From contig JACNJL010000035.1 of NCBI GenBank assembly GCA_014382585.1, positions 3,756-67,755 on the forward strand: a DNA stretch of 64,000 nt, in the 5' to 3' direction. Source of the DNA: Limisphaerales bacterium. Lineage in GTDB: Bacteria > Verrucomicrobiota > Verrucomicrobiia > Limisphaerales > UBA1100. Made by a program: the position numbers and the translations under genes. The notes under the pieces were generated by a model. It was not told where the DNA came from. It worked only from the letters and a program-made list of their open reading frames with translations, and made no database searches. The number at the start of each line of letters is the position of its first letter. Position 1 is the first letter of the stretch. Positions 25,358 to 52,299 of the stretch are shown here, piece by piece.

Positions 25358-28300
25358 TTACCCTCCTTTGCTATCTGCGGGCGGTTCCTGTTGCTGCGCT
25401 TCCTGCAATTGAGCGAGGAGTTGTTGGATGAGGGCGTCACTGTCCTGCACCATATCCTGGCTGACATCGACAACCACTTCAGTGGGCTGAGCGGCGTCGA
25501 GGCGTTCACGCAGTTCGCGATGGCGTTCCTGATAGTTGGCGAAGAGCACGCCAATCTTCGACAGCGCCGCCTGCATTTGGTTGGCCTGCGTTTGGGATTG
25601 TGAATCGCGGATGGTATCAGCGAGCGTGACGTTGCTTTGCTCAATGAATTCGGCCAACGCCATTTGGCGGTCGGCGAGGGCGGATTGGCTTTCCTGTGTG
25701 GCGGCGGCTGCGGTGCTGGATTGCTCCAGATATTTCTCAAATGCGCCGCGCAAGGCGGTGAGATTTTCGTTGGTTGCGTCGCTCGGCACTGTGCCCTCGG
25801 TGGGGGTGGGTGCGGCGGTTTGCTGGCCGGAAAGGTGCTGGGAAATCGTATCACGAAGGGCATCGAGGCTTTCGTTCATCCCGCCCAGATCGAGCTGGGT
25901 GGTCCGGGGTTTAGAAAGCTCTTCTTTTAGCGTGCCTTGGATGGCATCAAGACCACCGGTGAAGAGTGAGAGCTGGCTGACCACGCGGCTGACAGGATCG
26001 CCTTGGTCGCCGCCCTGCAGGAATTGATTCCGGCCATAGGTTTTTTTGATATCCTCCCAACGCGCTTCCTCGTCTTCGGTCATCACCCCGATGAGCTGCT
26101 TGAATTTCAGGAAGTTTGCCTCTGCGCCAGTGGTGAGTGTTTGGCTTTCGCCTTTGTAATGGTCGAGCACGAGATCCATCAGCTCCTGATCATTCATAAT
26201 CGCCAACACCTTTTCGGCGAGGCGATTCATATTGCGATAGGAGCCCTGCATCTTGAAGGCCGGTTCGGTGCGGAATTCATCCGCTTGCCCGGCGCTCTCA
26301 ATGTACAACTGATTTACTTTCAAAACCACATCGCGCAGTACGGTGAGTTTTTTGAGGACGTTGAGTAATTCCTCGGTTTCATTCGCGGAATAACTTCCCT
26401 GTAACTCGATGCCCTCGCGTTGGCCGGTCTCGGCCATCCGAATAAACGCTTGAATATCTTTTTGTGCTGCCTTGGCGAGCGGTTGCAAAACGGGATTGGA
26501 GGTGATGGCATTCTCAATGTAGCTGCCGTTGAACGCTTCCTCGCGCCCCTTCATATCGTCGCCGAGATTGTATGTGTCAGCACGGTTGGCGAGCATATCG
26601 GGGATGCGGAATTTCTCGCCGCTCTCGGTGTACGGGTTGCCGGCCATCACGACGACGACGCGGCGACCGCGCATATCGTAGGTTTTGGGTTGACCGCGCC
26701 AGACACCCTCGATTTTGCGCTGGGCGTCACAGAGCGAAATAAATTTCTGCAAAAACTCCGGGTTGCAGTGCTGAATGTCATCCAAGTAAATCATCACGTT
26801 ATCGCCCATCTCCAGTGCGAGATTGAGTTTATTGACTTCCGCGCGCGCGCCGGCGTTGGGGGCATCCTCGGGATCCAGCGACCCCACTTCGTGGCCCAGC
26901 GCCGGCCCGTTGATTTTCATAAAAATCAGGCCCATTCGATTGGCGAGATATTCCATCAACGTGGTTTTGCCATAACCGGGCGGAGAGATGAGTAGCAGCA
27001 AGCCCATCAAATCCGTGCGCTTGCCTTCGCCGGTGACGCCAATTTGCTTGGCAAGATTGTCGCCCACGATCGGCAGGTATACAGTGTCCACCAATTGATT
27101 GCGCACGAAGGAGGACAGCACGCGCGGCTCAAATTCGTGCAGGCGCAACACTTCTTTTTCGTCTTCGATGAGTTTTTGTTTCAACTCCTGATACTGCTCA
27201 AAACGCGGCACGCTTTCGCGTGCGAAGCGGCCGAGCTTCTCCTGAAACACAAGATAATCAAAATCGTAACTACCTTCCTGCACCGCATCGTGCGCGCCCT
27301 GCAGACCGGTGATGGCCTGAGCGGTAGCAGCTTTCACCACGGCTTGTTTGTGATGATGGCCGCAGAAAATCAACGCAGCGACTTCCTCGAGATATTTATT
27401 TTCGCCGTTGCGCGTGAGCAGGAAGCCGCGCACCCAATCGCGCACGAGCTGATAATGACTGTGCGGATTGGCCTTGAGCGGTTTCTGCGCTTTGTCAAAT
27501 TCGGCTTCGCTGCCTTTCTTGACGAGATGCCGCTCAAATTCAGTGAGCAATTGATCCGCTTCCTGACTGACGGCCCAATCTTTGCCATTCGTAATTTCGT
27601 AAAATAAATATTCGCCCGCGGGCGCGGCATCTTCTTCGGGGAACAAAACGGTGTCCGTGACAAAACCCGCCACCAATTCCTGCAGCGCCACGATATATTC
27701 GCGCTGCGTGGGATCGCCGGGGAACAGCTCGTTACGTTTGGCGAAGCCTTCGAGTTTGGCGGCCCAAAGTTTGCGCGTGTCCTCGGGACAAAAGTGATGC
27801 CAATAAACCGCGCCGCACGCCCGTACGCGGGGATGATAGCGCGCCAGCTGCAGGGCGGCGTGGGTGTTGAGCAGCGCGGCGAGAATCTTGGCCGCGTCCT
27901 GATCGTGAATGCCTTTGGTGTACGCCTCGGCGTAGCGGTCGCCCATGAAATCCTGCACGAGTTTGAGGCGGTCGGCGGCCTTCATCGCGGCGACTTCGGC
28001 GAGACGTTCGCCGCTTTCGTGCTCGAGTTTCTGCCAAAGCAAATAGGCGAGATATTCGGCGCGGTAAATTTCGCGGTCTTCGCTGATAACCTGTTGCTCC
28101 CACACTTCGCGCGTGGCGAGGAAAGCCTCGTCCTCGATGGGGTCGAAATACTGGGTGCCGGTGAGGTGCAAATTCTGCTCGTCGCCCCGGCGCACGATGG
28201 TGAGGTCCAGCGGTTGGGTGTTTACGGCGAATTTGTGTTTGCCGAACTGGATAACGTTTTGGCCGTCGACGTAGAGTTCTTTTTTGTCTTTGAGCTGGCG

Positions 28301-30862: not shown

Positions 30863-30895
30863 CCCATCTGGCCGAAGCCGGATGGGGAATTGGAT

Positions 30896-33106
30896 TTATT
30901 TCGCCGCCTTATCGCCCAGCAACACGCCGGAGATCATATCGCCGATGCCGGATTCTTTCACCGCCTTTTGCGCCTGACGGATCACCGATTTCGTGCCGCC
31001 GTCATCCGCTTGGCTCACTAACTTGGTGAGCAGCGCTGAGATGGTGAGATTTTTCACGTCCTCGCTGGAGACGCCCAGATCCTTCACCCAACCGCGAAGT
31101 TGGGTTTTGAAATAATCGGGGTCGCCGTTGAAGAAGGTGTTCTTCACGTCGGTGATGGATTGGCTGTTGTTCACGAGGCGGTCGACCGATTTGCCGTAGC
31201 TCACCGAGCGCACGACCTTCTCGAAGAAGTCGTTCTCGCCGCCGACGATGTCGATGTTCGCGCTCTTGAGCGCTTCGCCCACCACGCGCGCCTGCGCTTC
31301 GGCCACATCCTTTTGGATTTGGATTTCGGCCAAATCCACGTCGCGGTCCTTGTTGAGTTGCAGTCGGAATTCTTCGTGATCCTGCGAGGCTTTGTTGAAG
31401 ATCTCGATGGCTTTTGCCATTTCGGTTTTGGACACCGCCTGCGCGAGGCCCATTTTTTCAGCGCCGGCCGCTTCGGCGGCTTTCACCGCGTCGATCGCTT
31501 TGCCTTCGCCCTCGCCTTCCGCCGCCTTGGCAAGGCCGCTCGCCTCGCCTTGTTTGGCCATCACTGAGGCTTCGGCCATGCCTAAAGCTTGTTCGGCTTC
31601 AGCGTCCGCTTTCTTTGCATCCGCCTTGGCGATGGTCACGCGGGCCTCGGCCAAACCATCGACACTCCGCATTGCCGCTGTGCCTTCGGCTTCCTGTTGC
31701 ATGGCGTGGTTGCGTTTCTCGCTGGCCTTGGCTTCCGCCTCGGCGATGGTGATGATCTCGTCGGCTTTCTTTTCTGCCGCTTGTTTCGAAGATTCGGCGG
31801 AGGTGACCTCCAGATACAAATCCTTGTCGGCAATTTCCTTTTGCGCCCGATGTTGGGCCTCGGCCATTTTCACTTCCTCCACCAAAGACGCTTCGGCTTT
31901 GGCGGTGGCTTCCACCATTAGCACGCGTTTGGCGCGGTCGGCTGACATATCGGCCTCCACATCCAACCGGCCTTGGTGTTGGGTGGTGACTTCCTTTTCT
32001 TTGGATTCCAAACCGGCCTTGCTCTCGGCCACTTCAAAGGCGGCCGCGATGATCTTGGCTTCCTTCTCCTGCTGCATCAGGCCGATGCGCCGCAAGCGAT
32101 CCACCTCGGCTTGTTCGCCGGATTCAATTTTCTCCTGCTCCAAGCGCAGCAAATCTTGATCCTTCGCGTACGTGGCACTCATGACCACACGATCCTGTTC
32201 CACCTTGCGTTCCTCGATGTGCTGGCTGGCCTCGATCTCAGCCTTCTCGGAGACCTCACGATTTTTCTGCACCTCCACCTGCGCCGCCGCGCCCTCACGG
32301 GCCTTGGCCTCTTCCACGGCGCGGGTTTGCTTGGCTAAATCTTCTTCGTTTTGTTTGTCCAACTCGCGTTTCTCCATTTCGGCGCGGATGTTGTCGTTCT
32401 TAATTTCAACATCCTTTTCCTGCGTGCGCTTGTTGGTTTCCTCCTCTTTTTGGGCGGTGATGCGGTTGATTTTTTCAATACCCTGCGCGTCAAGCACGTT
32501 GGCAGGGTCGTGATCTTCGCGGGCGGTTTGCTCCAAATAATCAATCGCCACGTCCTCCAGTTTGTAGCCGTTGAGATCCTCGCCAATTTCTTTGACAATC
32601 ATATCCCGAAATTGGGAACGCTGAACATAAAGCTGATCAAAATCCATTTGCTTGCCGGCCGCCTTCAAGGCATCGGAGAATTTCGCCTCAAACAAATTGC
32701 GCAGCAATTCGATTTCAGAAGCACGTTCACAACCCACCGCTTCAGCCACTTCCTTAATGTTTTCTACCTCCGGTGCCACGCGCACATAAAATGCCACCTC
32801 GATGTCTGCGCGGATGTTGTCCTGGCAAATTAGGCCGTCCTTGCCTTTCCGCGCCACCTCCAGTTTCTTCACCTGAATATCCATAATATCCCAGCGATTC
32901 AGGAAAGGAAACCGGAACATCCAATCCTTGGTGACCTTGAGCCCGCCAACACCCGTCCGCACACCGGCCTCGCCGGCCCGAACTTTTTTCAGGCAAAACA
33001 TGGAAAGAAACGCAAGGATAAGCAGGGATAAGCCAATGACGATGGCCGCCACCACACCGGCGGCAAGACCGCCAAGACTGATAAAACTAAGAACAGGTTG
33101 GATCAT
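30896..33106 (-). CDS. Flotillin/SPFH (band-7, YqiK-like) membrane protein with a greatly extended Ala/Glu/Lys coiled-coil tail
   Basis: N-terminal TM helix (LGGLAAGVVAAIVIGLSLLILAFL). SPFH core (…GGLKVTKDWMFRFPFLNRWDIMDIQV…ADIEVAFYVRV…). EA-rich flotillin repeats. YqiK-like C-terminal end (…NIDIVGGENDFF…). Start re-derived to the ATG at 33104-33106. Confidence 0.75.
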   Translation of the reverse strand: MIQPVLSFISLGGLAAGVVAAIVIGLSLLILAFLSMFCLKKVRAGEAGVRTGVGGLKVTKDWMFRFPFLNRWDIMDIQVKKLEVARKGKDGLICQDNIRADIEVAFYVRVAPEVENIKEVAEAVGCERASEIELLRNLFEAKFSDALKAAGKQMDFDQLYVQRSQFRDMIVKEIGEDLNGYKLEDVAIDYLEQTAREDHDPANVLDAQGIEKINRITAQKEEETNKRTQEKDVEIKNDNIRAEMEKRELDKQNEEDLAKQTRAVEEAKAREGAAAQVEVQKNREVSEKAEIEASQHIEERKVEQDRVVMSATYAKDQDLLRLEQEKIESGEQAEVDRLRRIGLMQQEKEAKIIAAAFEVAESKAGLESKEKEVTTQHQGRLDVEADMSADRAKRVLMVEATAKAEASLVEEVKMAEAQHRAQKEIADKDLYLEVTSAESSKQAAEKKADEIITIAEAEAKASEKRNHAMQQEAEGTAAMRSVDGLAEARVTIAKADAKKADAEAEQALGMAEASVMAKQGEASGLAKAAEGEGEGKAIDAVKAAEAAGAEKMGLAQAVSKTEMAKAIEIFNKASQDHEEFRLQLNKDRDVDLAEIQIQKDVAEAQARVVGEALKSANIDIVGGENDFFEKVVRSVSYGKSVDRLVNNSQSITDVKNTFFNGDPDYFKTQLRGWVKDLGVSSEDVKNLTISALLTKLVSQADDGGTKSVIRQAQKAVKESGIGDMISGVLLGDKAAK

Positions 33107-33334
33107 AATTTTCTCCGAAACAGTTGAGTTGTTAATTGCACAAACATATTGCGACACAGGACACCGCGCGCGTTGGAGTACCGCCCGGGGAAGCAGTGCG
33201 TGGTGTCGAGGCGAGAATACACAATTCCCCCGAAGGCGCGCCACTATAATCTTTAAGAAAGATTATAATCGCTCAATGCCAAAAACCCCAAAAAACCGGT
33301 GGCACATTACCCGATGGCGAGTTAGGTTCTCTCA

Positions 33335-35528: not shown

Positions 35529-37169
35529 TCACCGCCACTCCGTCTTGTGAATGTGCGCGCGGATGCGCCAGTAAAACAGCCCCACCGTGAACAGCGCGAT
35601 GGCGGCGGTTGAGAAGAAGATTTCCTGCGACCCCACTCCCAGTTGGCGCATCAGAAAAAATAAACCCGTGCCGGATATTTCGAACACCGCATCAACGGCG
35701 TTGGAGGCGCCGATGTATTGCCCGCGCGAATCGTTCGGCGAAAGTTTTTGAATCAACGCCTGCAGCGGAATCACGTACAACCCCGCACACACGCCCACGA
35801 TGAAGAGATATCCCACCACCCGCCAAATATCTGCCTTGCGTGCCTCCACCGCCGTGGCCACGAGGCCGGTGGGTTTGCCGTCTCGCTGCAACTCATAGTA
35901 GCCGATAGTTTTTGTTTGATCATCAATTTTACGCGCCCGCTTTTTTTTATTTTCAAACGTATCGAGATACGCCGAAGAAATTACCATCGCCCCCACTTCG
36001 CCATTTTCCACTCGCTCCATTCGTTCGCTCAACGAAATGCTGCCTTCGCGCTCGAATTCCAAATCCGACCGCAACTCCGCAAGCCGATCCTCCGCGCGAT
36101 CCAAATGATGACTCACCGTGATCCCCTCCGGCAAACCGGCCAACCCTTTCTCCGCCGTTGCAGTGTCGGCGCGATGAATCACCATATAACTCGATGGCGC
36201 CCATGCCAGCAACAGACTCGCCACCACCAACCCAATCGCGCCCGCCGGAATCAGCCGCGGTTGAATGCCATTACGCGAAATCAATCCCGCCGAAATGCTG
36301 CCTACCCCAATGGCCACACCGATGGTTCCCAGCAAGTAGACGCCCACTTTCGTTTCCGGCAAACCCAGCACCACCGTGTAGTCCGCCAAGATTAACAGAA
36401 ACATAAACGCCAGCATCCCGAAGCCGCCCTTGAGCAGACACACCATAAAGACCGGCGAATCGCCCTTGCGCATCCGGCGGATGGTGCGCAGGTGCGGTGC
36501 AAAAAATTCCCACTTCACTTTCAGGGTTTCCGCGCTGGCCTTGAGTTTGGGCATTTGAAGCGCCGCAATCAGCCCCACAATGGCCACGCACAAGAGCGCC
36601 ACGCCGGGAAGCCAAACTAATCCTACCGGTGCCGCAACGCCATCCGGCCCGCGATAGGCTTCGTAGATTGCCCCCGCCACTAACGTGGCCGCGATCACCG
36701 CCACGTTGGTCAGCATATTGATGATGCCGTTGGCCATGCTGATTTTTGAAGCGTCCACCAGCTCCGGAATCACTCCGTACTTGGCCGGACCAAAAAACGC
36801 GCTTTGCGTTCCCAGCAAAAACATCGCGAAGAGGCACAGATAAACATTGTTAAAATAGAAGCCCGCGAACGCCGCCAGCACGATGAGGAATTCCGCCTGC
36901 TTCACGCGCACCGCGACGAGTTGTTTACTGTAGCGATCGCACAACTGCCCGGCCACAGCGGAGAACAATAAAAACGGCAGCGCCAACACCGCCGCCACGT
37001 AGCTCTGCCCGCCATCGCCCAGCGTGCTGTTCCAAATCCCCGCCGCCGCAAGGCCGAAAGTGAGCACTTGTTTGAGCAGATAATCATTGCCCGCGCCAAG
37101 GAATTGCGTGACCACCAAAGACAAAAAACCTTTGTTGGCCAGCGGGTTTTTGGGCGTTGCGTCACTCAT
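35529..37169 (-). CDS. lplT: MFS transporter, lysophospholipid-transporter (LplT)-like
   Basis: 12-TM MFS topology with the LplT-like N-terminus (…GFLSLVVTQFLGAGNDYLLKQVL…). Adjacent to an acyltransferase, as in the lplT-aas pairing. Confidence 0.55.
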   Translation of the reverse strand: MSDATPKNPLANKGFLSLVVTQFLGAGNDYLLKQVLTFGLAAAGIWNSTLGDGGQSYVAAVLALPFLLFSAVAGQLCDRYSKQLVAVRVKQAEFLIVLAAFAGFYFNNVYLCLFAMFLLGTQSAFFGPAKYGVIPELVDASKISMANGIINMLTNVAVIAATLVAGAIYEAYRGPDGVAAPVGLVWLPGVALLCVAIVGLIAALQMPKLKASAETLKVKWEFFAPHLRTIRRMRKGDSPVFMVCLLKGGFGMLAFMFLLILADYTVVLGLPETKVGVYLLGTIGVAIGVGSISAGLISRNGIQPRLIPAGAIGLVVASLLLAWAPSSYMVIHRADTATAEKGLAGLPEGITVSHHLDRAEDRLAELRSDLEFEREGSISLSERMERVENGEVGAMVISSAYLDTFENKKKRARKIDDQTKTIGYYELQRDGKPTGLVATAVEARKADIWRVVGYLFIVGVCAGLYVIPLQALIQKLSPNDSRGQYIGASNAVDAVFEISGTGLFFLMRQLGVGSQEIFFSTAAIALFTVGLFYWRIRAHIHKTEWR

Positions 37170-37246
37170 CGCGGTGGCACGTTAACGCGATTTAGGGCGA
37201 AATGGAAAATTGATTCCTCACGAGTATTCATTGATCGAGTCAATGC

Positions 37247-38488
37247 TCAAAACAACTCACCACCGGGATGAGGATTGGTGGCATTGAGTTCGTCCAGCCC
37301 CGCCTGCACGCCCTTTTCAAAATCCACCGTAAGCCCCGCCATCGCCTCGCGCGGCTTGGCGGCAGCGGCGAGTTGTTCGGAAACATCAATCGGTTCGCCC
37401 AACCGTACGCGCGCGATGCGTTCGCCGTACGGTGGGAAATCACGCGAATACAAATCCTCGCGCATTTTTTCAATCGTTTCGCCCACCCGATCGAGCGTTG
37501 GATTTTCGCTAAGGTAATTGCCCGCGTAACTCAGGATCCGAAACGCCAAAATCGCCTCATCCGCCCATGTGGCCGCTACGGAATGATCAATCTCGCGTGC
37601 CGCACTCGTCCGCACTTTGTGAATCTCCCGCCGCGCACCGCGAATGCGATCCATCAAATCCGCCCCGGCCTTGGGCGTGATGCCGATTTTGTGTTCGAGC
37701 TTTTCCAGAATGAGTTCCGTCGAAGCCCGCAGTAATCCGGGCAAATCGTTGTAGTCCGGATTGAGCGGCAGAAATCCGCGCATTTTTAAATTCCGCTCCA
37801 CCATTGCGATCCCCACCCGATGCACCTCCACCACAATGTCCCCATCCGAATCAATCTCCACATCCAACACTGCCGCCATCGCGGCGAGCATTTCGCGCAA
37901 GCGCGGCCGAACATCCGTCACGTGCGAAACCTTGATCGAGACCGGCACAGCAAAAATGCAGCCACCTTCCTTCAATTCCTGCTGCGCCTTCATCGCGATG
38001 TACGCCGGCCCATCGAGAAAGGGTGTCACGCGGTCGTTCATAAAATACACATTGCCCTCGGGAAAAATCGTGAGCGCGTAACGTCCATCGATCACCGAAC
38101 GCACTGCCTCCTTTAAGCTCTGCCGGTCGCTTCCATCGCGATCTACCGAAAAAGCCCCCATGCGCTGCATTACCCACGCCACTTTTGCGTCACGCTCAAA
38201 CACATCGTACGCCGCCATAAAAAACGACCACAATTTGATCTGCCGGCACGTCTCCACCATGATTTGCGGATCGCTGTGCGTCGAATGATTGGGCATCAAC
38301 AATACTCGCGCACCGTGACGCCGATGAATCTCCAACAACGGCCCGGCATTTTCCACCTCCACGTTGGAAATAAGATGCCTCGTCCCTGGCAAATGACAGC
38401 GTCCATTCCACTGTTCGCCCAGCCAAGCAATGAGGCGGTTGGGCTTGGGCGGAAAGTAGCGGTACGGGTTATCGGCAAACTGCAACAT
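37247..38488 (-). CDS. PlsC/GPAT-family (lyso)phospholipid acyltransferase
   Basis: NHSTHSD (H-x4-D catalytic motif), FPEGN acyltransferase motif, and a typical LPLAT layout. Confidence 0.65.
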   Translation of the reverse strand: MLQFADNPYRYFPPKPNRLIAWLGEQWNGRCHLPGTRHLISNVEVENAGPLLEIHRRHGARVLLMPNHSTHSDPQIMVETCRQIKLWSFFMAAYDVFERDAKVAWVMQRMGAFSVDRDGSDRQSLKEAVRSVIDGRYALTIFPEGNVYFMNDRVTPFLDGPAYIAMKAQQELKEGGCIFAVPVSIKVSHVTDVRPRLREMLAAMAAVLDVEIDSDGDIVVEVHRVGIAMVERNLKMRGFLPLNPDYNDLPGLLRASTELILEKLEHKIGITPKAGADLMDRIRGARREIHKVRTSAAREIDHSVAATWADEAILAFRILSYAGNYLSENPTLDRVGETIEKMREDLYSRDFPPYGERIARVRLGEPIDVSEQLAAAAKPREAMAGLTVDFEKGVQAGLDELNATNPHPGGELF

Positions 38489-43238: not shown

Positions 43239-44678
43239 TTAACTCCCCCACCCTTCCGCCAAACGTACGAGCGTGCGCACAGCAATGCCACTGGCGCCTT
43301 TGCCGGCGTTGGGCTGGGCTTTGTCGAACCACGCGGTACCGGCGATGTCGAGGTGCGCCCACGGGGTGCCTTCGACGAATTGCTCCAAAAATTTTGCGGC
43401 AGTGATCGTGCCAGCTTTGCGATCCGAACCGGCATTGCGCAGGTCGCTCATATCGCCACGCATCGGCTCAAAATAATCGGCATCCATCGGCAACGGCCAA
43501 AAGCGTTCACCACATTCGCGTCCGCGCATTGCGATGCCGTCGCCGAGCGCTTTGTGATTGCCGAGCAACGCCACGCGTACGCTGCCGAGTGCGACGCTGA
43601 CTGCCCCGGTCAGCGTGGCGGCGTTGATGATGTGCGTTGCGCCGAGGCGATTGGCGTAGGTGAGCGCATCGGCAAGTACGAGGCGGCCTTCGGCATCCGT
43701 GTTGATGACTTCAATGGTTTTGCCATTCATCGCGGTGATGATGTCGCCCGGGCGCGTGGCGGTGCCGCTGGGCATATTTTCCGCCATGGCGAGCAGACAG
43801 GTGACGCGCACGCGCGGCTGCAAACGGCCGATGGCGGTGATGGCGCCGATCATCGTGGCGGCGCCGCCCATGTCGTACTTCATTTTCTCCATCGAATTGG
43901 CAGGTTTAAGCGACAGCCCGCCGGTGTCGAAGGTGATGCCTTTGCCAACCAGAAAAAGATGATCATCGTTAATTGGATCCTCGGGATTCCAGCTGAGCCG
44001 AACCATTCGTGGTGGGCGCACGGAGCCTTGGCCGACAGCGAGGAGCGCGCCCGCGCCCATTTCGCGCAGGGCATTTTCGTCGAGCACTTCCACTTCCAAT
44101 CCGGCCGCTTCGCCTTCGCGTGCGGCGCGCGTTGCGAATTCTTCGGGGCCCAAATCGTTGCCGGGAATTTCCACCAACTCGCGCGCAAGATTGACACACT
44201 CGGCAGTGACGCGTCCGGCATCAGCGGTCGATTGGTCACCGGTGGTCAGCAAAATGACTTCCTCGACCGGCCAAGGTTTTTGTTCTTTATAACCACTGGG
44301 CCGATGCTCGCCAAAGCCCGCGCCCTCGGCGGCCAAACGCACGCAAGCCTCGGGCGGCAGCAGCAACGCGACCGAGCGGCACTTGGCCCTGGCGGCGGCG
44401 CGCACGGCTTGGCCGGCGGCAGCAAACCAATGGCGCGCCATCGGCGCTTCGCCAAGGCCAATCAGGAAGACGCGTTTTACGGCGGTATCCGGCACGCGAT
44501 GGATGAGCGTGCACGCGCCGGTTTTGCCGGTGAATTCGCCGGTCTCAATGAGTTCGCCGGGCAAGCCGCCAAGGCGCGCATTGAGCGCGGCGTCCACCGC
44601 TGCGCCATTGGCCAACGGCACGGCCAGCGCGTCGACGTTGAGTTCTTCCCAGTTTCCAGAATGAAGGGTGATGTTCAT
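43239..44678 (-). CDS. pepA: Leucyl aminopeptidase, peptidase family M17
   Basis: NTDAEGRLVLADAL M17 signature. Typical length of 479 aa. Confidence 0.85.
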   Translation of the reverse strand: MNITLHSGNWEELNVDALAVPLANGAAVDAALNARLGGLPGELIETGEFTGKTGACTLIHRVPDTAVKRVFLIGLGEAPMARHWFAAAGQAVRAAARAKCRSVALLLPPEACVRLAAEGAGFGEHRPSGYKEQKPWPVEEVILLTTGDQSTADAGRVTAECVNLARELVEIPGNDLGPEEFATRAAREGEAAGLEVEVLDENALREMGAGALLAVGQGSVRPPRMVRLSWNPEDPINDDHLFLVGKGITFDTGGLSLKPANSMEKMKYDMGGAATMIGAITAIGRLQPRVRVTCLLAMAENMPSGTATRPGDIITAMNGKTIEVINTDAEGRLVLADALTYANRLGATHIINAATLTGAVSVALGSVRVALLGNHKALGDGIAMRGRECGERFWPLPMDADYFEPMRGDMSDLRNAGSDRKAGTITAAKFLEQFVEGTPWAHLDIAGTAWFDKAQPNAGKGASGIAVRTLVRLAEGWGS

Positions 44679-44690
44679 ATTTTTAAAATT

Positions 44691-45356
44691 TTATTTGTGG
44701 TCCGGCCCGGGCTCCATCGTCGCAATAGCGTGCAATAAATCGGTGGCGGCTTGGTGATATAATTTTTTGAGCTGTTCTTTGTCTTTGGTTTCGTTTGCCT
44801 TGGCCCGAAGGTCGCGGAAGTCGAGTGGTTCGCCAAACTTAATTTCCACGCGATACGGGCGCGGCAGCCAATGGTGGCGGTTGTAGGCTTCAAAAGCACC
44901 AAACAATCGGACGGGAACCACGGGCGCATCGCTCTTGAGAATGATGAGGCCCACGCCCGGCTGCGGAGCCTGGATTTGGCCGGTGGCCGAGCGGGTGCCT
45001 TCGGGATACATCATCACCGCATCGCCGGCGCGCAGGCGGGTGAAAAAAGTTTTCAAGCCACGACCACTGCCGGATTGGTCGACGGGGATGACATTCCAGC
45101 TATGCAACAACCAACCGAGCACGGGCACTTTGTAGGCGCTGTCGCGCGCCAAAGCGATGACCAGCCGTTGCAGCGAGCACACCAAATAAATGGGGTCGAG
45201 ATAACTCACGTGGTTGGAGGCCAGAATCACGCTATGCTCGGCGGGCACACGATCGACGTGCAGCACGCGGCGGCGAATCCAAAAGCGAGTGAGCAGCCCG
45301 AACAAAAACCGCGCCAGTCGGTAAGAGAAATTGATGCGCGTGGGCGTTCGGGCCAT
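44691..45356 (-). CDS. plsC: 1-acyl-sn-glycerol-3-phosphate acyltransferase (PlsC family)
   Basis: NHVSYLDP (H-x4-D) and YPEGTRS motifs. 221 aa. Confidence 0.75.
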   Translation of the reverse strand: MARTPTRINFSYRLARFLFGLLTRFWIRRRVLHVDRVPAEHSVILASNHVSYLDPIYLVCSLQRLVIALARDSAYKVPVLGWLLHSWNVIPVDQSGSGRGLKTFFTRLRAGDAVMMYPEGTRSATGQIQAPQPGVGLIILKSDAPVVPVRLFGAFEAYNRHHWLPRPYRVEIKFGEPLDFRDLRAKANETKDKEQLKKLYHQAATDLLHAIATMEPGPDHK

Positions 45357-45359
45357 CAG

Positions 45360-46166
45360 TCAGTTTCCCTGCCCGCGAAAAATGCGCAGCACTTTGCGGC
45401 GCAACAGCGCGGGCCATAGCGCTTTGAGAATGGGCGCGAGGCGCAGGCGGGGCGGGATGATGAGTTCGCTCTGGCGCTCGCGCATCGCATCGATGATTTC
45501 GCGCGCGCATTCGTCAAGCGTGATGGATTCGTGATTGTGCGAGCGCTTGCTTTCACCCATCGCCGCACCATCGGCGGTGCACGCGTTGGCGCGCATTTGG
45601 GTGCCTTGAATCCAATGCGGATGGACGGTCAAAATATCAACGCCGGTTTCCTCCAACTCGTAGCGCAGCGTATCACAAAAACCTTCGAGCGCGTGTTTGC
45701 TGGCAACGTATCCGGAATGCGCGGGCACGGCTATTTTGCCTTGGATGCTGCCGATGGAAACTATGAGGCCGCCGGTCTTCTTGAGCGCGGGCAGCGCGAA
45801 GTGCAGGGTGTTCACAAGGCCCAAATAATTGACCTCCATCAATCGGCGAAACAAATTGAGGTCAGTCACTTCATCGAATTTGGCCCACATACTGAGGCCG
45901 GCGTTGGAGATGAGAAAATCGATACCGCCAAAGCGCTCCGTGGTTTTGGCGATGAGGCACTCGCAATCTTCAGGTTGCGTGACATCGCCGGTGACAGCCA
46001 TCGCTTCCCCACCCGCCGCTTCGCATTCGGCCACGGCCTCGGCCAAGGCTTCGGCGTTGCGGGCGAATAGCACCACGCGACATTGTCGCGCGGCAAGATC
46101 GCGCGCAAGTTGGCGGCCCAAGCCGGATGAGGCACCGGTGATGATGACGACTTTTTCGGCAAACAT
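45360..46166 (-). CDS. Short-chain dehydrogenase/reductase (SDR); candidate acyl/alkyl-DHAP reductase
   Basis: VVIITGASSGLGRQLA (TGxxxGxG). YVASKHALEGF (catalytic Y-x3-K). Four-nucleotide overlap with both neighbours. Confidence 0.75.
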   Translation of the reverse strand: MFAEKVVIITGASSGLGRQLARDLAARQCRVVLFARNAEALAEAVAECEAAGGEAMAVTGDVTQPEDCECLIAKTTERFGGIDFLISNAGLSMWAKFDEVTDLNLFRRLMEVNYLGLVNTLHFALPALKKTGGLIVSIGSIQGKIAVPAHSGYVASKHALEGFCDTLRYELEETGVDILTVHPHWIQGTQMRANACTADGAAMGESKRSHNHESITLDECAREIIDAMRERQSELIIPPRLRLAPILKALWPALLRRKVLRIFRGQGN

Positions 46167-47902
46167 TAGTCCGCCTTGTTGAACGACGCAATGGCCTCAT
46201 CGGTCAAGCCCCATTCGCGCAGCGGCTCGGGGCCGGGAAGAATTTTGCCGGGGTTCATCACGGCTTTGGGGTCGAGGCCGTCCTTGAGCGCGCGCACGGC
46301 TTTGACGCCGGTGGGCGAAAGATCGGCCTCAATCCACGGGAGATGCTCCGTGCCGATGGCGTGATGATGGCTGACGGTGCCGCCGTTTTGGAGGAAGGAA
46401 TCTTCGGCGGCTTTTTTGATATAAAGATATTGATCCATCTCGCGGCCTTCGATTTGGCGGCAACCGAAGGTGAAGTAGAGGCTCGCGCCGGTGTGATAGT
46501 TGTGGCTGATGTGGCAGCCTACCCACGGATCCACGCCGGTATCGCGAATGGCTTTGCGAATGTTGGCAAGGGTTTTGGTATAAAGATTGTGAAGATTGTC
46601 CCAGGTGGTGGAGGTTTCGCTGACGTCGCCCATCACGCCGCGGTCCATCAAATAATCGCGCACATGCGGGAAATCATACTTCGCTTCCTTGAAGGAATTG
46701 CCCGGACCTTCGCCGAGGTTCACGCCGCCGTGCTTTCGGAAAACCCGATTGGATTCCCGGCGCTGCAAATGGAACGTATCGTAATCACCTTCGTACGCGG
46801 TGGTCATCATACAGCATTTCGTGAAGTCAATGCCTTTGATGTTTCGTAAATACCATTTCATCATCGCGCCAATTTTTTGTTTCACCGGCGACTCCACTTT
46901 TTTGAAAGCCGCACTCAGGGCCGTCTTGCCCGGATCGTTGAGGCGCGTGATGACCGGCATCGCGCCGTGCCGCATGCATTCGTGAATGGCGTGAATGCCG
47001 CTCTCGAAATCCGGGAACAACCAACCTTCAAACAATTTATATTCCGGCAAGCGATGCACTTGCATCGTCACCTCGGTGATGACGCCGAGGATGCCTTCGC
47101 TACCCACGCACAAACTCCGCACGTCAATGCCGTTGGAAGTATTGGGAACCGTGCGCGTGACGATCGTGCCGCTGGGCGTGACCATTCGCACCGCGATGAC
47201 CATATCCTCGATCTTGCCGTACTTGTCGCTTTGCATTCCCGCCGAACGCGTGGCCACCCAACCGCCGAGCGTGGAGTGCACAAACGAATCCGGAAAATGC
47301 CCAAGCGTAACGCCTTCCGCCTCAAGCTGTTCCTCCATATGCGGCCCGTAAACGCCGGCCTCGATGCGGGCGAGTAGCGATTTTTTATCCACCGCCAACA
47401 CGCGATGCATCCGGCACATATCGAGACTCACAATGAATCGCCCATCGCGGTCCTTCGGCTCAATGCAACCGGCGATGTTTGTGCCGCCGCCAAACGGAAT
47501 GAGCACGGCGTTGTGTTCGTGCGCGGCTTTGACGATGGCCACCACGTCGTCTTCGCTTGCCGGATAGATAACAAGGTCGGGCGCGAAATCCACTTGCCCG
47601 CGCCGCAGGCGAAACAAATCGCGAAAGGCTTTTCCAGCGGCGTGGATGAGGCGGTCTTTTTTGTCGACAGAAACTTGATCGCCCGCCAGCGCGTCACGCA
47701 GCGCGGCAACAAAGGGAGCGTTCTCTTTGGCGGCGGGCAAATGCACGTCATCAAACTTCACCGGTGGGGTGGGCTCGACTTGTTCCAGCCCCAACTCGCC
47801 GCTGAGGTAGGGCCACAGCTTCGGCTTGTCAGCATCGCTGAAGCGCACATCCTCATAGCCCCATCCCCACCATTTCATGTGGCGAATTTTCGGGTCAGCC
47901 AT
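46166..47902 (-). CDS. FAD-linked oxidase of the alkyl-dihydroxyacetonephosphate synthase (AGPS) type
   Basis: N-terminus MKWWGWGYEDVRF, the hallmark of alkyl-DHAP synthases. PCMH-type FAD-binding domain (…GGGTNIAG…). 578 aa. Confidence 0.7.
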   Translation of the reverse strand: MADPKIRHMKWWGWGYEDVRFSDADKPKLWPYLSGELGLEQVEPTPPVKFDDVHLPAAKENAPFVAALRDALAGDQVSVDKKDRLIHAAGKAFRDLFRLRRGQVDFAPDLVIYPASEDDVVAIVKAAHEHNAVLIPFGGGTNIAGCIEPKDRDGRFIVSLDMCRMHRVLAVDKKSLLARIEAGVYGPHMEEQLEAEGVTLGHFPDSFVHSTLGGWVATRSAGMQSDKYGKIEDMVIAVRMVTPSGTIVTRTVPNTSNGIDVRSLCVGSEGILGVITEVTMQVHRLPEYKLFEGWLFPDFESGIHAIHECMRHGAMPVITRLNDPGKTALSAAFKKVESPVKQKIGAMMKWYLRNIKGIDFTKCCMMTTAYEGDYDTFHLQRRESNRVFRKHGGVNLGEGPGNSFKEAKYDFPHVRDYLMDRGVMGDVSETSTTWDNLHNLYTKTLANIRKAIRDTGVDPWVGCHISHNYHTGASLYFTFGCRQIEGREMDQYLYIKKAAEDSFLQNGGTVSHHHAIGTEHLPWIEADLSPTGVKAVRALKDGLDPKAVMNPGKILPGPEPLREWGLTDEAIASFNKAD

Positions 47903-48623
47903 GGAGTTCCTTCAGTTTGTGAATGCGGTTTTCCATCTCGCGAGTGATCGCGCTGTAAATCATGCGACCACCGCCATGTTCTTCGCGAAAACGGTTGGGG
48001 TCAATCGCTTCCCCTATGTAAACCCGCAGGCGCGTGGGTTTGAAAAACTTGCCGCCTTTCGGGTACGCGCGGTGCGTGCCGTTAATATAAACCGGCACAA
48101 TCGGCAGGCTTAATTCGGTGGCGATCATCGCCGGCCCTTTTTTCATCGGCGCCATCTCGCCGGTTTGCGAGCGCGTGCCTTCGGGATAAATGATGAGGCT
48201 GCGGTGTCCGTGACCGGTGAATTCTCGGCAGGCGACCATCAGCTTCACGATGCTCTCGCGGTTCGCGCCACGATCGGCAGGGATAAGATTCATCAGACGC
48301 GAGAGAAAGCTGTTGCGTTTTTGGTTGTCGAAAAAATAATCTTTCGCCGCCACCATTCCGTATTGCTCGAAATCCTCGCCACCGGCGTACATCAACGCGG
48401 CGCTGTCCATATGGCTGCAGTGGTTGCTGCAAAACATAAAGGGCGCGGACGGGAGATTTTCGCGCCCCACCACTTTCAGCGGACACCACACATTAAAAAG
48501 CACGCGACAAAACAGCTCGAAACACTTGTGCCACATCGCCGCCGTGCCGTGCGGGGATTTGCGCAAATAGCCGTACTCCGGCTCGAGTTCCGTCTCTTTC
48601 AGCAATTCCTGAAAGCTCGACAC
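47895..48623 (-). CDS. PlsC/GNPAT-like acyltransferase; candidate DHAP acyltransferase
   Basis: CSNHCSHMDSAAL (H-x4-D) and IYPEGTRS motifs. Overlaps AGPS by 8 nt. Confidence 0.65.
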   Translation of the reverse strand: MSSFQELLKETELEPEYGYLRKSPHGTAAMWHKCFELFCRVLFNVWCPLKVVGRENLPSAPFMFCSNHCSHMDSAALMYAGGEDFEQYGMVAAKDYFFDNQKRNSFLSRLMNLIPADRGANRESIVKLMVACREFTGHGHRSLIIYPEGTRSQTGEMAPMKKGPAMIATELSLPIVPVYINGTHRAYPKGGKFFKPTRLRVYIGEAIDPNRFREEHGGGRMIYSAITREMENRIHKLKELHG

Positions 48624-48626
48624 GTC

Positions 48627-49778
48627 TTACCTTCCGAATTTCGCGTGGGCCTCGGCAAACTCGTTGCTCACAATGGCCCCCGCCAGTGAAATCTCCAACG
48701 CCAACGCCGAAGCACAAATGATCTCCGCCAGTTTGCACGAAGAATGTTCACCACCGGCGCAGCCCAATAATTCCAAATTCGCCCGTTGCGCGTGCAAGCG
48801 CGTGGCGCCACCCACCGTGCCCACCGTCACGCTCGGCATACTCAGCGTGGCGTACAAATCGTCGCCGCGTTTTTCGTACGTCGCAATACCGATGGCGTTC
48901 TCCGCCACGCACGCCACGTCCTGCCCCAGCGCGAGGTAGAGCGCGGCCAGCGCGTTGGCGGTGTGGAGATTCATCCCCAACATCCCGGCCATTTGCGAGC
49001 CGAGATGTTTGTCGGTAAGCGCCTCGATGAGTTGATCAGCCGTGACGCGCAGCAGCTTTTTCAGGATGCGATTGGGAATCTGAAAACTGGCGATGACGTG
49101 ATGGCCTCGCCCTTTGGTAAGGCTGCGGTGCGCGGGATTTTTGTCCGCGTTATAATTGCTTTCCAACAAATATCGAAACGGCGTTTCGCCGGAAAGATGT
49201 TCGACAATGTAACGGCACGCGGCATCGGTGCTCAACGTCACCATATTTTGTCCGGCCGCCTCGGCGGTATGATAAATGAAATCGAGGATGACGCGGTTGT
49301 GGATGATTTGTTTATCAATCCGCAATAGTTTGCCGTAGCGCGTGGTGTTTTCGGCGGCATTTTTGATATCATCGTAGCGGGCGTCGATGATGTTGAGAAA
49401 AGCCAGCGCCTCTTCGATTTCATCAAACCGAAACACCGGCGCGCGCGAAAGTTCCTGCTTCACGTGGCGCGTCTTGATGCCGCCCGCGCGATGGGTGAGA
49501 TAAAGTCCGCGCGTCATCGAAAGGCTCAGCGTGCCTTCCACCGTGCACAGCGGCACATAAAAATCACCGTGCGCATAAGTGCCATCGATTTTCAGCGGCC
49601 CGGAAATGCTCAACGGCAGCCCCACAAAGCCCACGTGATTTTCGATGAGCCCCTTGAGATTTTCTGGCTCATCCAGCGCGAACTCCGGCACCGTGTGCCC
49701 CGTCTGCTCCTGCAACCATTGCTGGCGTGCCTCAGTGTCCGCTTGGGCGTACCCGCGCGGTGGTGTCAGTTTGTTCAT
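48627..49778 (-). CDS. HMG-CoA-reductase-family NAD(P)H oxidoreductase (short, 383 aa)
   Basis: ENHVGFVGLPLSISGPLKIDG (compare ENVIG…P…GPL), VPLCTVEGTLSLSMTRG (compare PMATTEGCLVAS), MAGMLGMNLH (compare DAMGMNM), VGTVGGAT (compare GTVGG). Confidence 0.6.
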   Translation of the reverse strand: MNKLTPPRGYAQADTEARQQWLQEQTGHTVPEFALDEPENLKGLIENHVGFVGLPLSISGPLKIDGTYAHGDFYVPLCTVEGTLSLSMTRGLYLTHRAGGIKTRHVKQELSRAPVFRFDEIEEALAFLNIIDARYDDIKNAAENTTRYGKLLRIDKQIIHNRVILDFIYHTAEAAGQNMVTLSTDAACRYIVEHLSGETPFRYLLESNYNADKNPAHRSLTKGRGHHVIASFQIPNRILKKLLRVTADQLIEALTDKHLGSQMAGMLGMNLHTANALAALYLALGQDVACVAENAIGIATYEKRGDDLYATLSMPSVTVGTVGGATRLHAQRANLELLGCAGGEHSSCKLAEIICASALALEISLAGAIVSNEFAEAHAKFGR

Positions 49779-49878
49779 TATATTTGGCCAAAAAACCGCT
49801 CGAAAAAGCGGGTCCGCAGCGTTGGGTCGCTCATCGCGGATGCGGGCAATCTAGCGGCAAACCCCAGTCAGTCCAGCT

Positions 49879-52299
49879 TTACTTGCCCAAATTGCGCGCC
49901 CCGCCTCCAAGCCACGCCGGTAACAACCCCAGCGCCGCCCCCAACGCCCCTGCCAAACCCGCCGCCAACAACAACCCAAAATGCACCACCGGCGGAAATT
50001 CCGACACCCAAAACACCCCCGCCATTCCCACCAAAATCGCCGTGGTCGCCACGATAGGCCGCCCCTTCACCGCCAACGTCCGCCGCGCTGCTTCCTTTGC
50101 ATCCGCGCCCGCCGCCCGTTCGCCGAGCCAATGCGTGATAAAATGAATCGTGTCGTCCACCGCAATCCCCAACGCGATGGCCGCCACCATAATGGTAATC
50201 GAATTAAGCGGCACCCCCGCAAACCCCTGCAACGCGATAAGCATCCCCACCGGCAAAACATTCACCGCCAACGCCAACACCGCCAAGCCCAGCGACCGCC
50301 ACAACACCGCCAACAAAATCGCGATCAACCCAATACTCCACAGCACACTCCGCCGTTGACTGCGCACGATGCGGCGATCCGCCTCGAGGATCGCGCGCAC
50401 CCCGCTCTCAATGGACACCGTGACGCCGGGCGGCGCATTCTTCCGCGCGTGCGTTTCCATTCGATGCAGCAAATCCAAATACGCCGCGCTGCTCATATCG
50501 CGCGTGCGCAACAAAAGCTGTGCCGTTTGCCCGCGTCCGTCGCTCAGCATTTCCATAAACGGCGTGTGCGTTTCGCCACCACGTTCTTTATTTAGCACCG
50601 CCACGAACATGGGGATTTTCCAAAACTCCTTTGGCAACACCCGCGTGCCTTCCGCGCCGCCTTCCCACACTTCGTTGATCGTCGCCAACAATTGCGCGTA
50701 CGAATAAACCGCTGTCACCTCCTCCTGGGCGGTGGCGTGTTGATGCACCGTATCGAGGTAATTCAAAAAAATGGGATGATTGATGCCATTGGTCATCCCC
50801 GAATCCACCGCCATTTGCACCACGTTGATGCCGCCGTACGCCGCGTCCAATTCTTCAATCATCAAACGCGTGGGACTCTTTTTGCCCAAAAACTCCGAAG
50901 CCCGAATATCTGTGCGCACTTTGGAAATCCCCAGCACCATTACCCCCACCGCCACCAAAGCCGCCACTGCAACTCTACGCCGATGCCTCAACAAAAACTC
51001 CACCCACGAGGCGCCCTGCCCTGTTTCCACCGTTGCCTCCGCGACCTCCGGCGCTGTTGATTTTACATTCCGGAACAACACCAACAACAAGCCCAAGGCC
51101 GGCCCGAACGTCACCAAAAACAACATTGCAATCCCCGCTGCGCCGAGTTGGCCGAACTCGCGGATCTGCTGGACATCGCTCGCCATCAACGCCGCCAGCC
51201 CTACCATTGTGGTCAACGCCGCATACGCGCTCGCGCGAAACACTTCACCCAACATTGCGTGAATCGCGTCCACGGCATTGAACTCGCGCCCCCACGCCCG
51301 TTGAAATGCCGTCGCCATGTGAATCAATAGCGTCAGATGCACCCCCGTCAACAAAGGCAGTAGCAACACCGTAAAAATGTTGAGATACAAACCCGTCACT
51401 TCCATCAAGAACGGAATCAGCATGAGCCCCATCGCCTGGCTCCCCAGCACGAAAACCATCAAGCGCGGCAGCCGCCAAAATGTCACCGCCAACACCCCCA
51501 CCAACAACGCCAACGCCAGTGGCATAAAACGCCAAGCGTCCTGCACCAACGTGGTATAAATTTCGTGCTCAATCAGCGGCAACGCAATCGCCCGCGCCGA
51601 GTGCCCCTCATCGCGGAAAGGCTGCAACACCGCTTCCACTTGATGATGAAATAAAAGCTGCTCCTCAGTGGTGAACGCCGGATCCGTGAGGTTGATGATC
51701 AGCATCGTGTGCCGGCCATCTGCCGCCACCAAAATATTGCGCGCAAAAGGATGTTCCTGCGACCAACGCCGCAGCTCGCGCAATCCATGTTCATCCAACC
51801 GCTCCGGCACCAAAGGCAACCACTTCAGGCCCAACCCGTCCCGCACCGGCCGTTCCACCGTGACGAGGCTGTTCACATTGGTGCGCACGACCTCGTGAAA
51901 GAGACCCTCGCGAAAAACTCGATTCGTCACCGTCACCCCCGGCAACGTCCCCAGTGCCGCCGTCACCCGCCGGATCAACGCCACCCCCTCCGCCGAGTAC
52001 ACCTCGCCGCAGTCGAGACTCACCGCGAGTGGCTCTGCATCGCCAAGAACCCCCTGCGCGCCCTCGTAACTTTCCAAGTTCCGCTGATCCCCCGCCAGTA
52101 GATCGCCCACCTCGGTCGACACCTCTATTTCGTCGACACACAAGACGCTTGGCAGACTCACCAACAGCCCCAACACCAGCAACAACACCGCTGGCTCCAA
52201 ATTAAACTGTCGTTTCCCGTCCGCCAAAGCCCCGCTTGTACAAGCGACCGCCCCGGATGTCCGCCAAAAAAAACGGGTATGGTGGCATTCCTTCTCCAA
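49879..52299 (-). CDS. MMPL/RND-superfamily transporter (HpnN-like lipid exporter architecture)
   Basis: Two 6-TM bundles, each followed by a large periplasmic loop. 806 aa. Duplicated GxxxD-containing TM regions typical of MMPL/RND. Confidence 0.65.
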   Translation of the reverse strand: MEKECHHTRFFWRTSGAVACTSGALADGKRQFNLEPAVLLLVLGLLVSLPSVLCVDEIEVSTEVGDLLAGDQRNLESYEGAQGVLGDAEPLAVSLDCGEVYSAEGVALIRRVTAALGTLPGVTVTNRVFREGLFHEVVRTNVNSLVTVERPVRDGLGLKWLPLVPERLDEHGLRELRRWSQEHPFARNILVAADGRHTMLIINLTDPAFTTEEQLLFHHQVEAVLQPFRDEGHSARAIALPLIEHEIYTTLVQDAWRFMPLALALLVGVLAVTFWRLPRLMVFVLGSQAMGLMLIPFLMEVTGLYLNIFTVLLLPLLTGVHLTLLIHMATAFQRAWGREFNAVDAIHAMLGEVFRASAYAALTTMVGLAALMASDVQQIREFGQLGAAGIAMLFLVTFGPALGLLLVLFRNVKSTAPEVAEATVETGQGASWVEFLLRHRRRVAVAALVAVGVMVLGISKVRTDIRASEFLGKKSPTRLMIEELDAAYGGINVVQMAVDSGMTNGINHPIFLNYLDTVHQHATAQEEVTAVYSYAQLLATINEVWEGGAEGTRVLPKEFWKIPMFVAVLNKERGGETHTPFMEMLSDGRGQTAQLLLRTRDMSSAAYLDLLHRMETHARKNAPPGVTVSIESGVRAILEADRRIVRSQRRSVLWSIGLIAILLAVLWRSLGLAVLALAVNVLPVGMLIALQGFAGVPLNSITIMVAAIALGIAVDDTIHFITHWLGERAAGADAKEAARRTLAVKGRPIVATTAILVGMAGVFWVSEFPPVVHFGLLLAAGLAGALGAALGLLPAWLGGGARNLGK

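Follow-up and report, generated by a model that had tools for sequence, protein, structure and literature searches.

In eukaryotes, ether lipids are formed by a peroxisomal route that employs FAR1/2, GNPAT, AGPS and PexRAP/DHRS7B, followed by AGPAT. Non-isoprenoid alkyl glycerol ethers of bacterial origin serve as biomarkers in environmental studies, and many of their producers and pathways are unclear (PMC5552659, PMC11868695). The closest described bacterial system is the Myxococcus xanthus operon MXAN_1676-1675-1674, which encodes alkyl-dihydroxyacetone phosphate (alkyl-DHAP) synthase (AGPS), a FAR-GNPAT fusion and a NAD-dependent epimerase/dehydratase (PMC9131029, PMC13012113). Here we analyse a stretch of 64,000 nucleotides, referred to as the window, from a Limisphaerales bacterium of the Verrucomicrobiota (assembly GCA_014382585.1, contig JACNJL010000035.1, positions 3,756 to 67,755). 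It carries seven co-directional genes, all on the minus strand, in the order MMPL, fcrA-like (HMGR-like), AT1, agps, SDR, AT2 and pepA. As judged from the encoded proteins, this operon very probably serves the synthesis of ether-linked membrane lipids by way of the AGPS-dependent route of eukaryotic type, and we estimate the probability at roughly 0.75 that its three- to four-gene core, the cassette, constitutes a self-contained route from acyl-CoA and DHAP to 1-O-alkyl-sn-glycerol-3-phosphate.

The first enzyme of this core belongs to a family for which a precedent exists. Grossi et al. (2025, ISME J) described FcrA as a homologue of class-I hydroxymethylglutaryl-CoA (HMG-CoA) reductase, HMGR, that reduces acyl-CoA to alcohol (PMC11948995). 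As described there, the assayed FcrA is NADPH-dependent, does not reduce HMG-CoA and is insensitive to simvastatin; the criterion for an FcrA is conversion of acyl-CoA of C14 or longer to alcohol, and Pb-FcrA alone yields the alcohol. The HMGR catalytic tetrad is kept, and changes are found in the pocket at Ser684, at Lys735 (given in print as 795) and at Leu862. FcrA was first found in a wax-ester context; the paper also contains the suggestion that some FcrA proteins supply the alcohol for ether lipids via AGPS, and mentions, for one genome, an AGPS gene nine genes from Pb-FcrA (PMC11948995). The proposal that an HMGR-like protein acts as an acyl-CoA reductase, which an earlier note on this DNA made as an inference of its own, had thus already appeared in print in 2025, as had the idea that such an enzyme may feed AGPS.

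The fcrA-like gene of the window (48627-49778, minus strand) encodes a 383-aa protein of the class-I HMGR fold, which consists of the catalytic core only (PF00368, 340 bits). The protein and its relatives (87 family members) were aligned with human HMGR and with the archaeal HMGR 6HR7. The catalytic residues Glu559, Lys691, Asp767 and His866 (human numbering; E81, K213, D287 and H378 in the window protein) were invariant across the family. The substrate-pocket residues, whose inspection the earlier note had recommended, told a different story: the position of human S684 is occupied by Glu in 87/87 family members (E206 in the window protein), that of K692 by Asn in 86/87 (N214) and that of L862 by Phe in 85/85 (F374), whereas human HMGR and 6HR7 carry S and L at positions 684 and 862. 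The column corresponding to K735 lies beside a one-residue deletion and is variable (K, C, L, M, A, I and others); the window protein has K257 at this position in the 87-member alignment and D256 in a larger one. When scored with the HMGR equivalog model TIGR00533, the window protein reached 296.9 bits, and five relatives from other phyla 277-297 bits, all under the cutoff of 441.8 bits, which was exceeded by the controls, truncated human HMGR (504 bits) and 6HR7 (619 bits).

The phylogeny, likewise recommended in the earlier note, led to the same conclusion. In a neighbour-joining tree (158 domains, 376 columns, 100 bootstraps) the canonical S-K-L group (five sequences, including human HMGR and 6HR7) was split from the rest in 99/100 bootstraps, leaving the window protein outside it. 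The cassette clade (89/100) was nested among proteins with the FcrA signature, including ones that bear the PF25653 domain. Pb-FcrA and N. pharaonis FcrA are not among the proteins of the tree, and E-x-W proteins with PF25653 served as proxies; the exact residue numbering of N. pharaonis FcrA was matched by no representative protein searched. Since the assayed FcrA sequences are absent from the tree, membership of the FcrA clade is well supported but indirectly anchored.

Independent evidence came from an exhaustive search of 1.84 billion cluster representatives with the HMGR-like protein, which returned 2913 matches. Past a handful of cassette-type clusters, the next relatives are 35-42% identical and mostly multidomain. 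The nearest relatives outside the cassette are fused to AMP-binding domains, alone or together with PP-binding domains, to APH/EcKL kinase-like domains, to PilZ or to DUF3419, and some relatives combine an N-terminal PF25653 domain with the E-x-W signature, the architecture described for characterised FcrA. Because relatives are fused to fatty-acid activation modules, this branch appears to act on acyl thioesters. The fused relatives are proteins P0129, P0140, P0166, P0132, P0133, P0138, P0180 and P0126; the kinase fusions could hint at phosphorylation of fatty alcohols. Among the fusions of FcrA that the available part of Grossi et al. describes are an N-terminal alkyl-carrier domain and ACP, with no kinase mentioned there (PMC11948995). 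Taken together, the pocket residues, the score under the TIGR00533 cutoff, the tree and the linkage to AT1 and AGPS described below support the identification of the HMGR-like protein as the missing fatty acyl-CoA reductase, of FcrA type, in agreement with the assignment made in the earlier note. Its predicted reaction is fatty acyl-CoA + 2 NADPH -> fatty alcohol.

The FAD-linked oxidase encoded at 46166-47902 (minus strand, 578 aa, WWGWGY at residue 11) is, by its sequence, a real AGPS. It has the FAD_binding_4 + FAD-oxidase_C architecture, and its best match in the PDB is 2UUU, the Dictyostelium AGPS (E=1.3e-135, 40% identity over 513 aa), with guinea-pig AGPS 4BBY at 3.4e-92. The best match outside AGPS, a D-lactate dehydrogenase, has 6.5e-26, so that the grouping with AGPS, on which the earlier note had made its proposal depend, was obtained by a wide difference in E value. 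In the alignment with 4BBY, R320, Y476 and H512-514 of the window protein correspond to R419, Y578 and H615-617. Arg419, Tyr578 and the His615-617 loop are what we take to be the AGPS active site in guinea-pig numbering, the roles of these residues reportedly having been worked out by Nenci et al. in 2012. The Arg, the Tyr and the HHH are invariant in all 69 cassette-linked AGPS proteins, including copies that are only about 31% identical to the window AGPS. The latter copies belong to loci L054, L057 and L060-L062 (Marinimicrobia and one gammaproteobacterial metagenome-assembled genome, MAG), and because they keep Arg, Tyr and HHH, we regard them as a deeply divergent AGPS lineage with the same gene order. 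The predicted reaction of AGPS is the formation of the ether bond, in which a fatty alcohol takes the place of the acyl group in acyl-DHAP.

The linkage between these genes was followed in a scan of 185,579 species-representative genomes, in which 80 loci encoding relatives (55-95% identity) were found. The window proteins were mapped onto these loci, which carry L numbers in this text, by tblastn, and 73 loci had enough flanking DNA to be assessed. The fcrA-like gene is adjacent to agps, with AT1 alongside, in 69 of the 73, nearly always in the order fcrA-like, AT1, agps; two Legionellales loci have AT1-agps upstream of the fcrA-like gene, directly adjacent to it in L086. Of the 61 loci that could be assessed for it, 56 have an orthologous SDR gene immediately after agps. 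The cassette occurs in Verrucomicrobiota, Planctomycetota, Ignavibacteria, Marinimicrobia, Gemmatimonadota, KSB1, Calditrichota, Bacteroidota and Gammaproteobacteria, the gammaproteobacterial carriers being sponge-symbiont families, Halothiobacillaceae and Legionellales. Among the carriers are the complete genomes CP065001 (Ignavibacteriales), OZ243038 and OZ244999. Such an arrangement is far beyond chance, and its conservation across the loci defines the functional unit as fcrA-like + AT1 + agps, usually with the SDR gene.

Clustering of all flanking open reading frames (ORFs) revealed no further neighbour (desaturase, head-group enzyme or transporter) common across phyla. The MMPL gene was present in 20 loci, all in Verrucomicrobiota, and pepA after AT2 in Verrucomicrobiota loci only. 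The window is a lineage-specific extended version of the cassette, and MMPL and pepA stand outside the conserved module. Two of the cassette loci, L026 and L039 (64-66% identity), come from environmental MAGs titled 'Akkermansia muciniphila'; both have AT2 after the SDR gene, and L039 also has MMPL and pepA. This label is doubtful, because the context matches that of Verrucomicrobiota loci and loci of similar identity are titled Verrucomicrobiales, Verrucomicrobiota and Pedosphaera.

All enzymes from the HMGR-like protein to the SDR and AT2 have intact catalytic motifs. AT1 (47895-48623, minus strand, 242 aa) is a PlsC-type acyltransferase made up of a single PF01553 domain, with the motifs H68-x4-D and E148GTR, and its sole PDB relative is the T. 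maritima PlsC 5KYM. Human GNPAT has about 680 aa. AT1 is of the short PlsC type and does not have a GPAT/DHAPAT-type architecture, and since it is PlsC-like by sequence, the term 'GNPAT-like' applied to it in the earlier note can speak of its presumed function only: AT1 may work like GNPAT without belonging to the GNPAT family. It is the candidate DHAP acyltransferase that would make 1-acyl-DHAP. The product of the next gene but one (45360-46166, minus strand, 268 aa, PF00106) is a classical short-chain dehydrogenase/reductase (SDR). It has the motifs TGxxxGxG (residue 10) and Y153xxxK, and SDRs of the 11-beta-HSD1 type are among the solved structures closest to it. This SDR is the putative acyl/alkyl-DHAP reductase that would make 1-O-alkyl-sn-glycerol-3-phosphate. 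AT2 (44691-45356, minus strand, 221 aa, PF01553), the second PlsC-type acyltransferase, has the motifs H49-x4-D and E119GTR and is 24% identical to AT1. Its orthologues (41-96% identity) are found after the SDR gene in Verrucomicrobiota loci only, and AT2 is probably an sn-2 acyltransferase, a Verrucomicrobiota-specific addition to the cassette.

Gene order parallels reaction order. In the proposed pathway the HMGR-fold enzyme would use its HMGR tetrad for the four-electron reduction of a long-chain acyl-CoA to the fatty alcohol, at the expense of 2 NADPH, AT1 would acylate DHAP to 1-acyl-DHAP, AGPS would swap the acyl group for the fatty alcohol to give the ether-bonded alkyl-DHAP, and the SDR would reduce the keto group to yield 1-alkyl-glycerol-3-phosphate. 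The sn-2 acyl chain would then be added by AT2 in Verrucomicrobiota and by the housekeeping PlsC in other phyla, and the resulting alkyl-acyl phosphatidic acid would join ordinary phospholipid synthesis. What the sequences show directly are the family identities, the intact catalytic motifs, the FcrA-type specificity residues and the gene linkage across phyla; every substrate and product, including DHAP as the substrate of AT1, and the part played by the SDR are inferred. Alkyl rather than vinyl-ether lipids are expected, because no PEDS1/CarF-type desaturase is linked to the cassette. The ether-lipid route suggested in the earlier note is thus borne out by the identity of AGPS, by the FcrA type of the reductase and by the linkage of the latter to AT1 and AGPS across phyla.

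Several observations weigh against this reading. The SDR gene is missing from five cassette loci, and in four Planctomycetaceae genomes the fcrA-like gene stands alone beside uvrB, in an uninformative context that contains no AGPS. The reductase role in the cassette clade would rest on analogy with FcrA, and Pb-FcrA is more distant and has an extra N-terminal domain, the nearest PF25653-type representatives being about 40% identical. The HMGR-like protein keeps R590, and the Verrucomicrobiota subclade has a Lys that can be aligned with the HMG-binding K735, for which the larger alignment gives Asp. Disruption of AGPS in Myxococcus led to a minor loss of ether lipids only (PMC9131029). Pontiella has ElbD homologues, yet no ether lipids were found in it (PMC11868695), and none have been reported for the uncultured lineages considered here.

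The genes of the operon are tightly packed. The gene set and the minus-strand orientation given in the earlier note agree with what was found, at the positions it gave, and so does the distance of 100 bp between MMPL and the rest: from the MMPL stop codon to the start of the downstream HMGR-like gene we measured exactly 100 nt. The '4-8 nt overlaps' between the genes did not hold up, since AT1/AGPS overlap by 8 nt and AGPS/SDR by 1 nt, there are no other overlaps from the HMGR-like gene to pepA, and the remaining junctions are gaps of 3 nt (HMGR-like/AT1), 3 nt (SDR/AT2) and 12 nt (AT2/pepA). The pepA gene (M17 leucyl aminopeptidase; NF002073, 483 bits, over its cutoff) does belong to the gene string, 12 nt past AT2, but at 43239-44678 (minus strand) it lies beyond the coordinates of the earlier note. 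It is probably a co-transcribed, lineage-specific passenger.

The gene at the upstream end of the operon (49879-52299, minus strand; start codon uncertain, longest ORF 806 aa) encodes an MMPL/RND-family membrane protein (PF03176, 76 bits). Its scores with subfamily models are under the cutoffs (HAE3, 137 vs 352; HpnN, 55 vs 752), and the PDB matches to HpnN and MmpL3 have E values of only about 1e-5. A crude hydropathy scan indicated an RND-like topology with one transmembrane segment (TM), a large loop, 4 TM, a large loop and 4 TM. In L007, L009 and L010, which share about 86-90% nucleotide identity with the window over the cassette, homology to the window ends inside MMPL, at about 50314, and the N-terminal two thirds of the protein (50315-52299) are replaced by a version of 41% protein identity; L011, L012 and L082 have the window-type N-terminal part (87-94%). 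Most of the transporter thus seems to have been exchanged by recombination. In L001-L003 the stretch between an enolase-superfamily gene and MMPL (positions 5347-7550) holds genes for a PAP2 phosphatase and for an M20 peptidase, both of which the window lacks; PAP2 could dephosphorylate alkyl-acyl-glycerol-3-phosphate, as in the eukaryotic pathway.

The intergenic region between MMPL and the fcrA-like gene (49779-49878, minus strand) is a conserved leader. Directly past the MMPL stop codon lies a promoter-like pair, GCTGGAC-N17-TAGATT (49848-49877), which is also found upstream of the fcrA-like gene in MMPL-less loci (L024, L029). It is followed by a conserved ACCCAACG box and then, at 49796-49811, by a hairpin and its U-run, from which 17 nt remain to the ATG of the fcrA-like gene. 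The U-run is usual among relatives, and the hairpin stems covary (CCGC/GCGG, CCCC/GGGG, CCUU/AAGG, CCUC/GAGG). RNAalifold applied to a MAFFT alignment of the leaders recovered only a 5-bp upstream stem; the second hairpin was judged from single-sequence folds, because indels misalign it in the MAFFT alignment. No second instance of the promoter-like motif or of the ACCCAACG box occurs in the window, and searching the whole window with Rfam at gathering thresholds and with a tRNA scan gave no match. The possibility that the leader encodes an upstream ORF of 18 codons, with its end at the start of the fcrA-like gene, was considered and rejected, as the ATG of this ORF is absent in L001 and L014 and the frame past the T-run is unconserved. 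The motif pair, the box and the hairpin suggest that the cassette is transcribed from a promoter of its own, with a structured leader that may be an attenuator or another regulatory RNA. Because the promoter-like motif and the hairpin with its U-run separate MMPL from the cassette, the role of ether-lipid exporter that the earlier note had given to MMPL is unsupported; the gene also accompanies the cassette in part of the Verrucomicrobiota only, and its N-terminal two thirds vary. Export of the ether lipid by MMPL is conceivable, but no more than a guess.

Three other explanations of the locus were weighed. That the HMGR-like protein could be a genuine HMG-CoA reductase of the mevalonate pathway, its adjacency to AGPS being coincidental or reflecting the attachment of isoprenoid alcohols to ether lipids, might be argued from the full-length PF00368 match, the intact tetrad, the retained R590, the possible Lys at K735 and the name hydroxymethylglutaryl-CoA reductase that public databases give to the protein. 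This explanation is very improbable, as it would have to accommodate a score about 145 bits under an equivalog cutoff that the controls pass, the family-wide replacements S684->Glu, K692->Asn and L862->Phe, the 99/100 separation from canonical HMGR and a linkage to AT1 and AGPS that is kept over about nine phyla. Moreover, no mevalonate-pathway gene was found in the approximately 40 kb annotated (about 24-64 kb of the window and two low-GC islets), and bacteria that have only an FcrA-type homologue lack the mevalonate pathway according to Grossi et al. (PMC11948995).

Compared with the foregoing, a reassignment of roles within the same pathway is easier to imagine, although we still consider it unlikely: the HMGR-like enzyme would stop at the aldehyde or use acyl-ACP and the SDR would finish the alcohol, AT1 would be the sn-2 acyltransferase, and housekeeping enzymes would form acyl-DHAP and reduce alkyl-DHAP. 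AT1 is of PlsC type, the one solved structure related to it is that of an sn-2 LPA acyltransferase, the cassette of most phyla contains a single acyltransferase, five loci have no SDR gene, and two-enzyme reduction of acyl-CoA is known from other bacteria, as with Acr1 and an aldehyde reductase in Acinetobacter. Against this stands the four-electron chemistry of the HMGR type, in which the aldehyde is not released, and the yield of alcohol by Pb-FcrA alone in the account outlined above; in Myxococcus and eukaryotes AGPS works alongside an acyltransferase and a reductase that are dedicated to the DHAP acylation and the reduction step, and the extra AT2 of Verrucomicrobiota fits a difference in substrate between AT1 and AT2. 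The remaining explanation, to which we also assign a low probability, differs in the end product and not in the core chemistry: the ether product would not be a bulk membrane phospholipid but a neutral alkyl-diacylglycerol storage lipid or a scarce signalling or stress lipid, possibly exported by MMPL in some Verrucomicrobiota. M. xanthus builds up the alkyl-diacylglycerol TG-1 in development, with a small share due to AGPS (PMC9131029), the terminator-like leader hairpin suggests conditional expression, and one lineage has MMPL neighbours, with a PAP2 gene upstream of MMPL in L001-L003. However, no head-group, storage-lipid or wax-synthase gene is linked to the cassette in any phylum, and MMPL has a separate pattern of conservation that varies among close relatives. 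Synthesis of ether-linked membrane lipids, with the roles assigned above, is the reading that we prefer.

Elsewhere in the window, a gene for an MFS transporter lies beside that for a 413-aa PF01553 acyltransferase (35529-38488, minus strand), an arrangement reminiscent of the LplT/Aas pair for lysophospholipid recycling; L001-L003 have the acyltransferase in the corresponding relative position. A 1834-aa DUF3686/DUF7902/AAA protein adjoins a 782-aa SPFH/Band-7 protein (25358-33244, minus strand). Two low-GC islets, at 62-2262 and 16305-17599, have a third-position GC content (GC3) of 0.37-0.46 vs about 0.7 elsewhere and contain ORFs without a Pfam match; they are probably recently acquired DNA.

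The enzyme families of the cassette are known, AGPS homologues had already been counted in MAGs of Verrucomicrobiota and Marinisomatota, and the path from FcrA to AGPS has been published as a suggestion. The conserved cassette itself is undescribed in the searched literature, as full-text literature searches found no paper that describes a directly linked fcrA-like/AT1/agps cassette. As a compact gene string present in dozens of species of several phyla, it provides much stronger genomic evidence for the FcrA-AGPS link. It also offers a minimal set of three or four genes that is directly testable in E. coli, and the fcrA-like gene beside agps would be a specific marker for ether-lipid producers in metagenomes. 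We regard it as possible, while leaning slightly against it, that fcrA-like/AT1/agps/SDR is a compact, horizontally spread module that alone confers 1-O-alkyl glycerolipid synthesis in at least nine phyla, among them the abundant uncultured marine Verrucomicrobiota, Marinimicrobia and Planctomycetota, and that in Verrucomicrobiota it may also be controlled by the structured 5' leader, of a kind not described before. If this were true, those groups would be important unrecognised sources of marine non-isoprenoid alkyl glycerol ethers, and feeding of AGPS, not wax-ester synthesis, would be a main role of the whole FcrA subclade.

When the locus is set beside the known systems, the reductase resembles FcrA in its HMGR fold, in the catalytic Glu/Lys/Asp/His, in the replacement of S684 by Glu and of L862 by a bulky aromatic residue and in its place outside the canonical HMGR clade. 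It differs from the described FcrA proteins (PMC11948995) in being a bare 383-aa core without the PF25653 alkyl-carrier domain of Pb-FcrA and of the N. pharaonis protein, in having Phe where the latter has Trp, and in its gene being located 3 nt upstream of AT1, packed with agps and with no wax synthase adjoining. In the tree, moreover, it falls in a separate clade (89/100). The MMPL protein shares with the lipid-exporting RND transporters HpnN, MmpL3 and BstA the MMPL domain, the RND-like topology and, like hpnN, a position beside lipid biosynthesis genes, but the similarity is remote, the association with the cassette is limited to one lineage and the N-terminal part is variable. The elbABCDE/ElbD system of myxobacteria also makes alkyl glycerol ethers aerobically from activated fatty acids by means of a reductase and an acyltransferase; ElbD, however, unites ACS-ACP-FAR-AT in one protein and is independent of AGPS, and no elb homologue is present in the cluster.

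With the eukaryotic peroxisomal route the cassette would share the sequence of reactions and a homologous AGPS, which is 40% identical to that of Dictyostelium and has the same active site and the WGWGY motif. AGPS is the only clearly homologous enzyme: an unrelated fold takes the FAR step and a PlsC-type protein the GNPAT step, there is no organelle, and no PEDS1/CarF gene is linked in the cassette. The pathway common to bacteria and eukaryotes would thus contain a clear case of non-orthologous replacement. The M. xanthus operon follows the same eukaryote-type logic, combining AGPS with an alcohol-forming acyl reductase, an acyltransferase and a NAD(P)-dependent reductase. In the cassette, in contrast, an FcrA-type protein of HMGR fold takes the place of the FAR domain and is encoded separately from the acyltransferase, which is of the short PlsC type, a classical SDR stands in for the extended, epimerase-type enzyme as the last reductase, the gene order is different, and the arrangement is found in about nine non-myxobacterial phyla.

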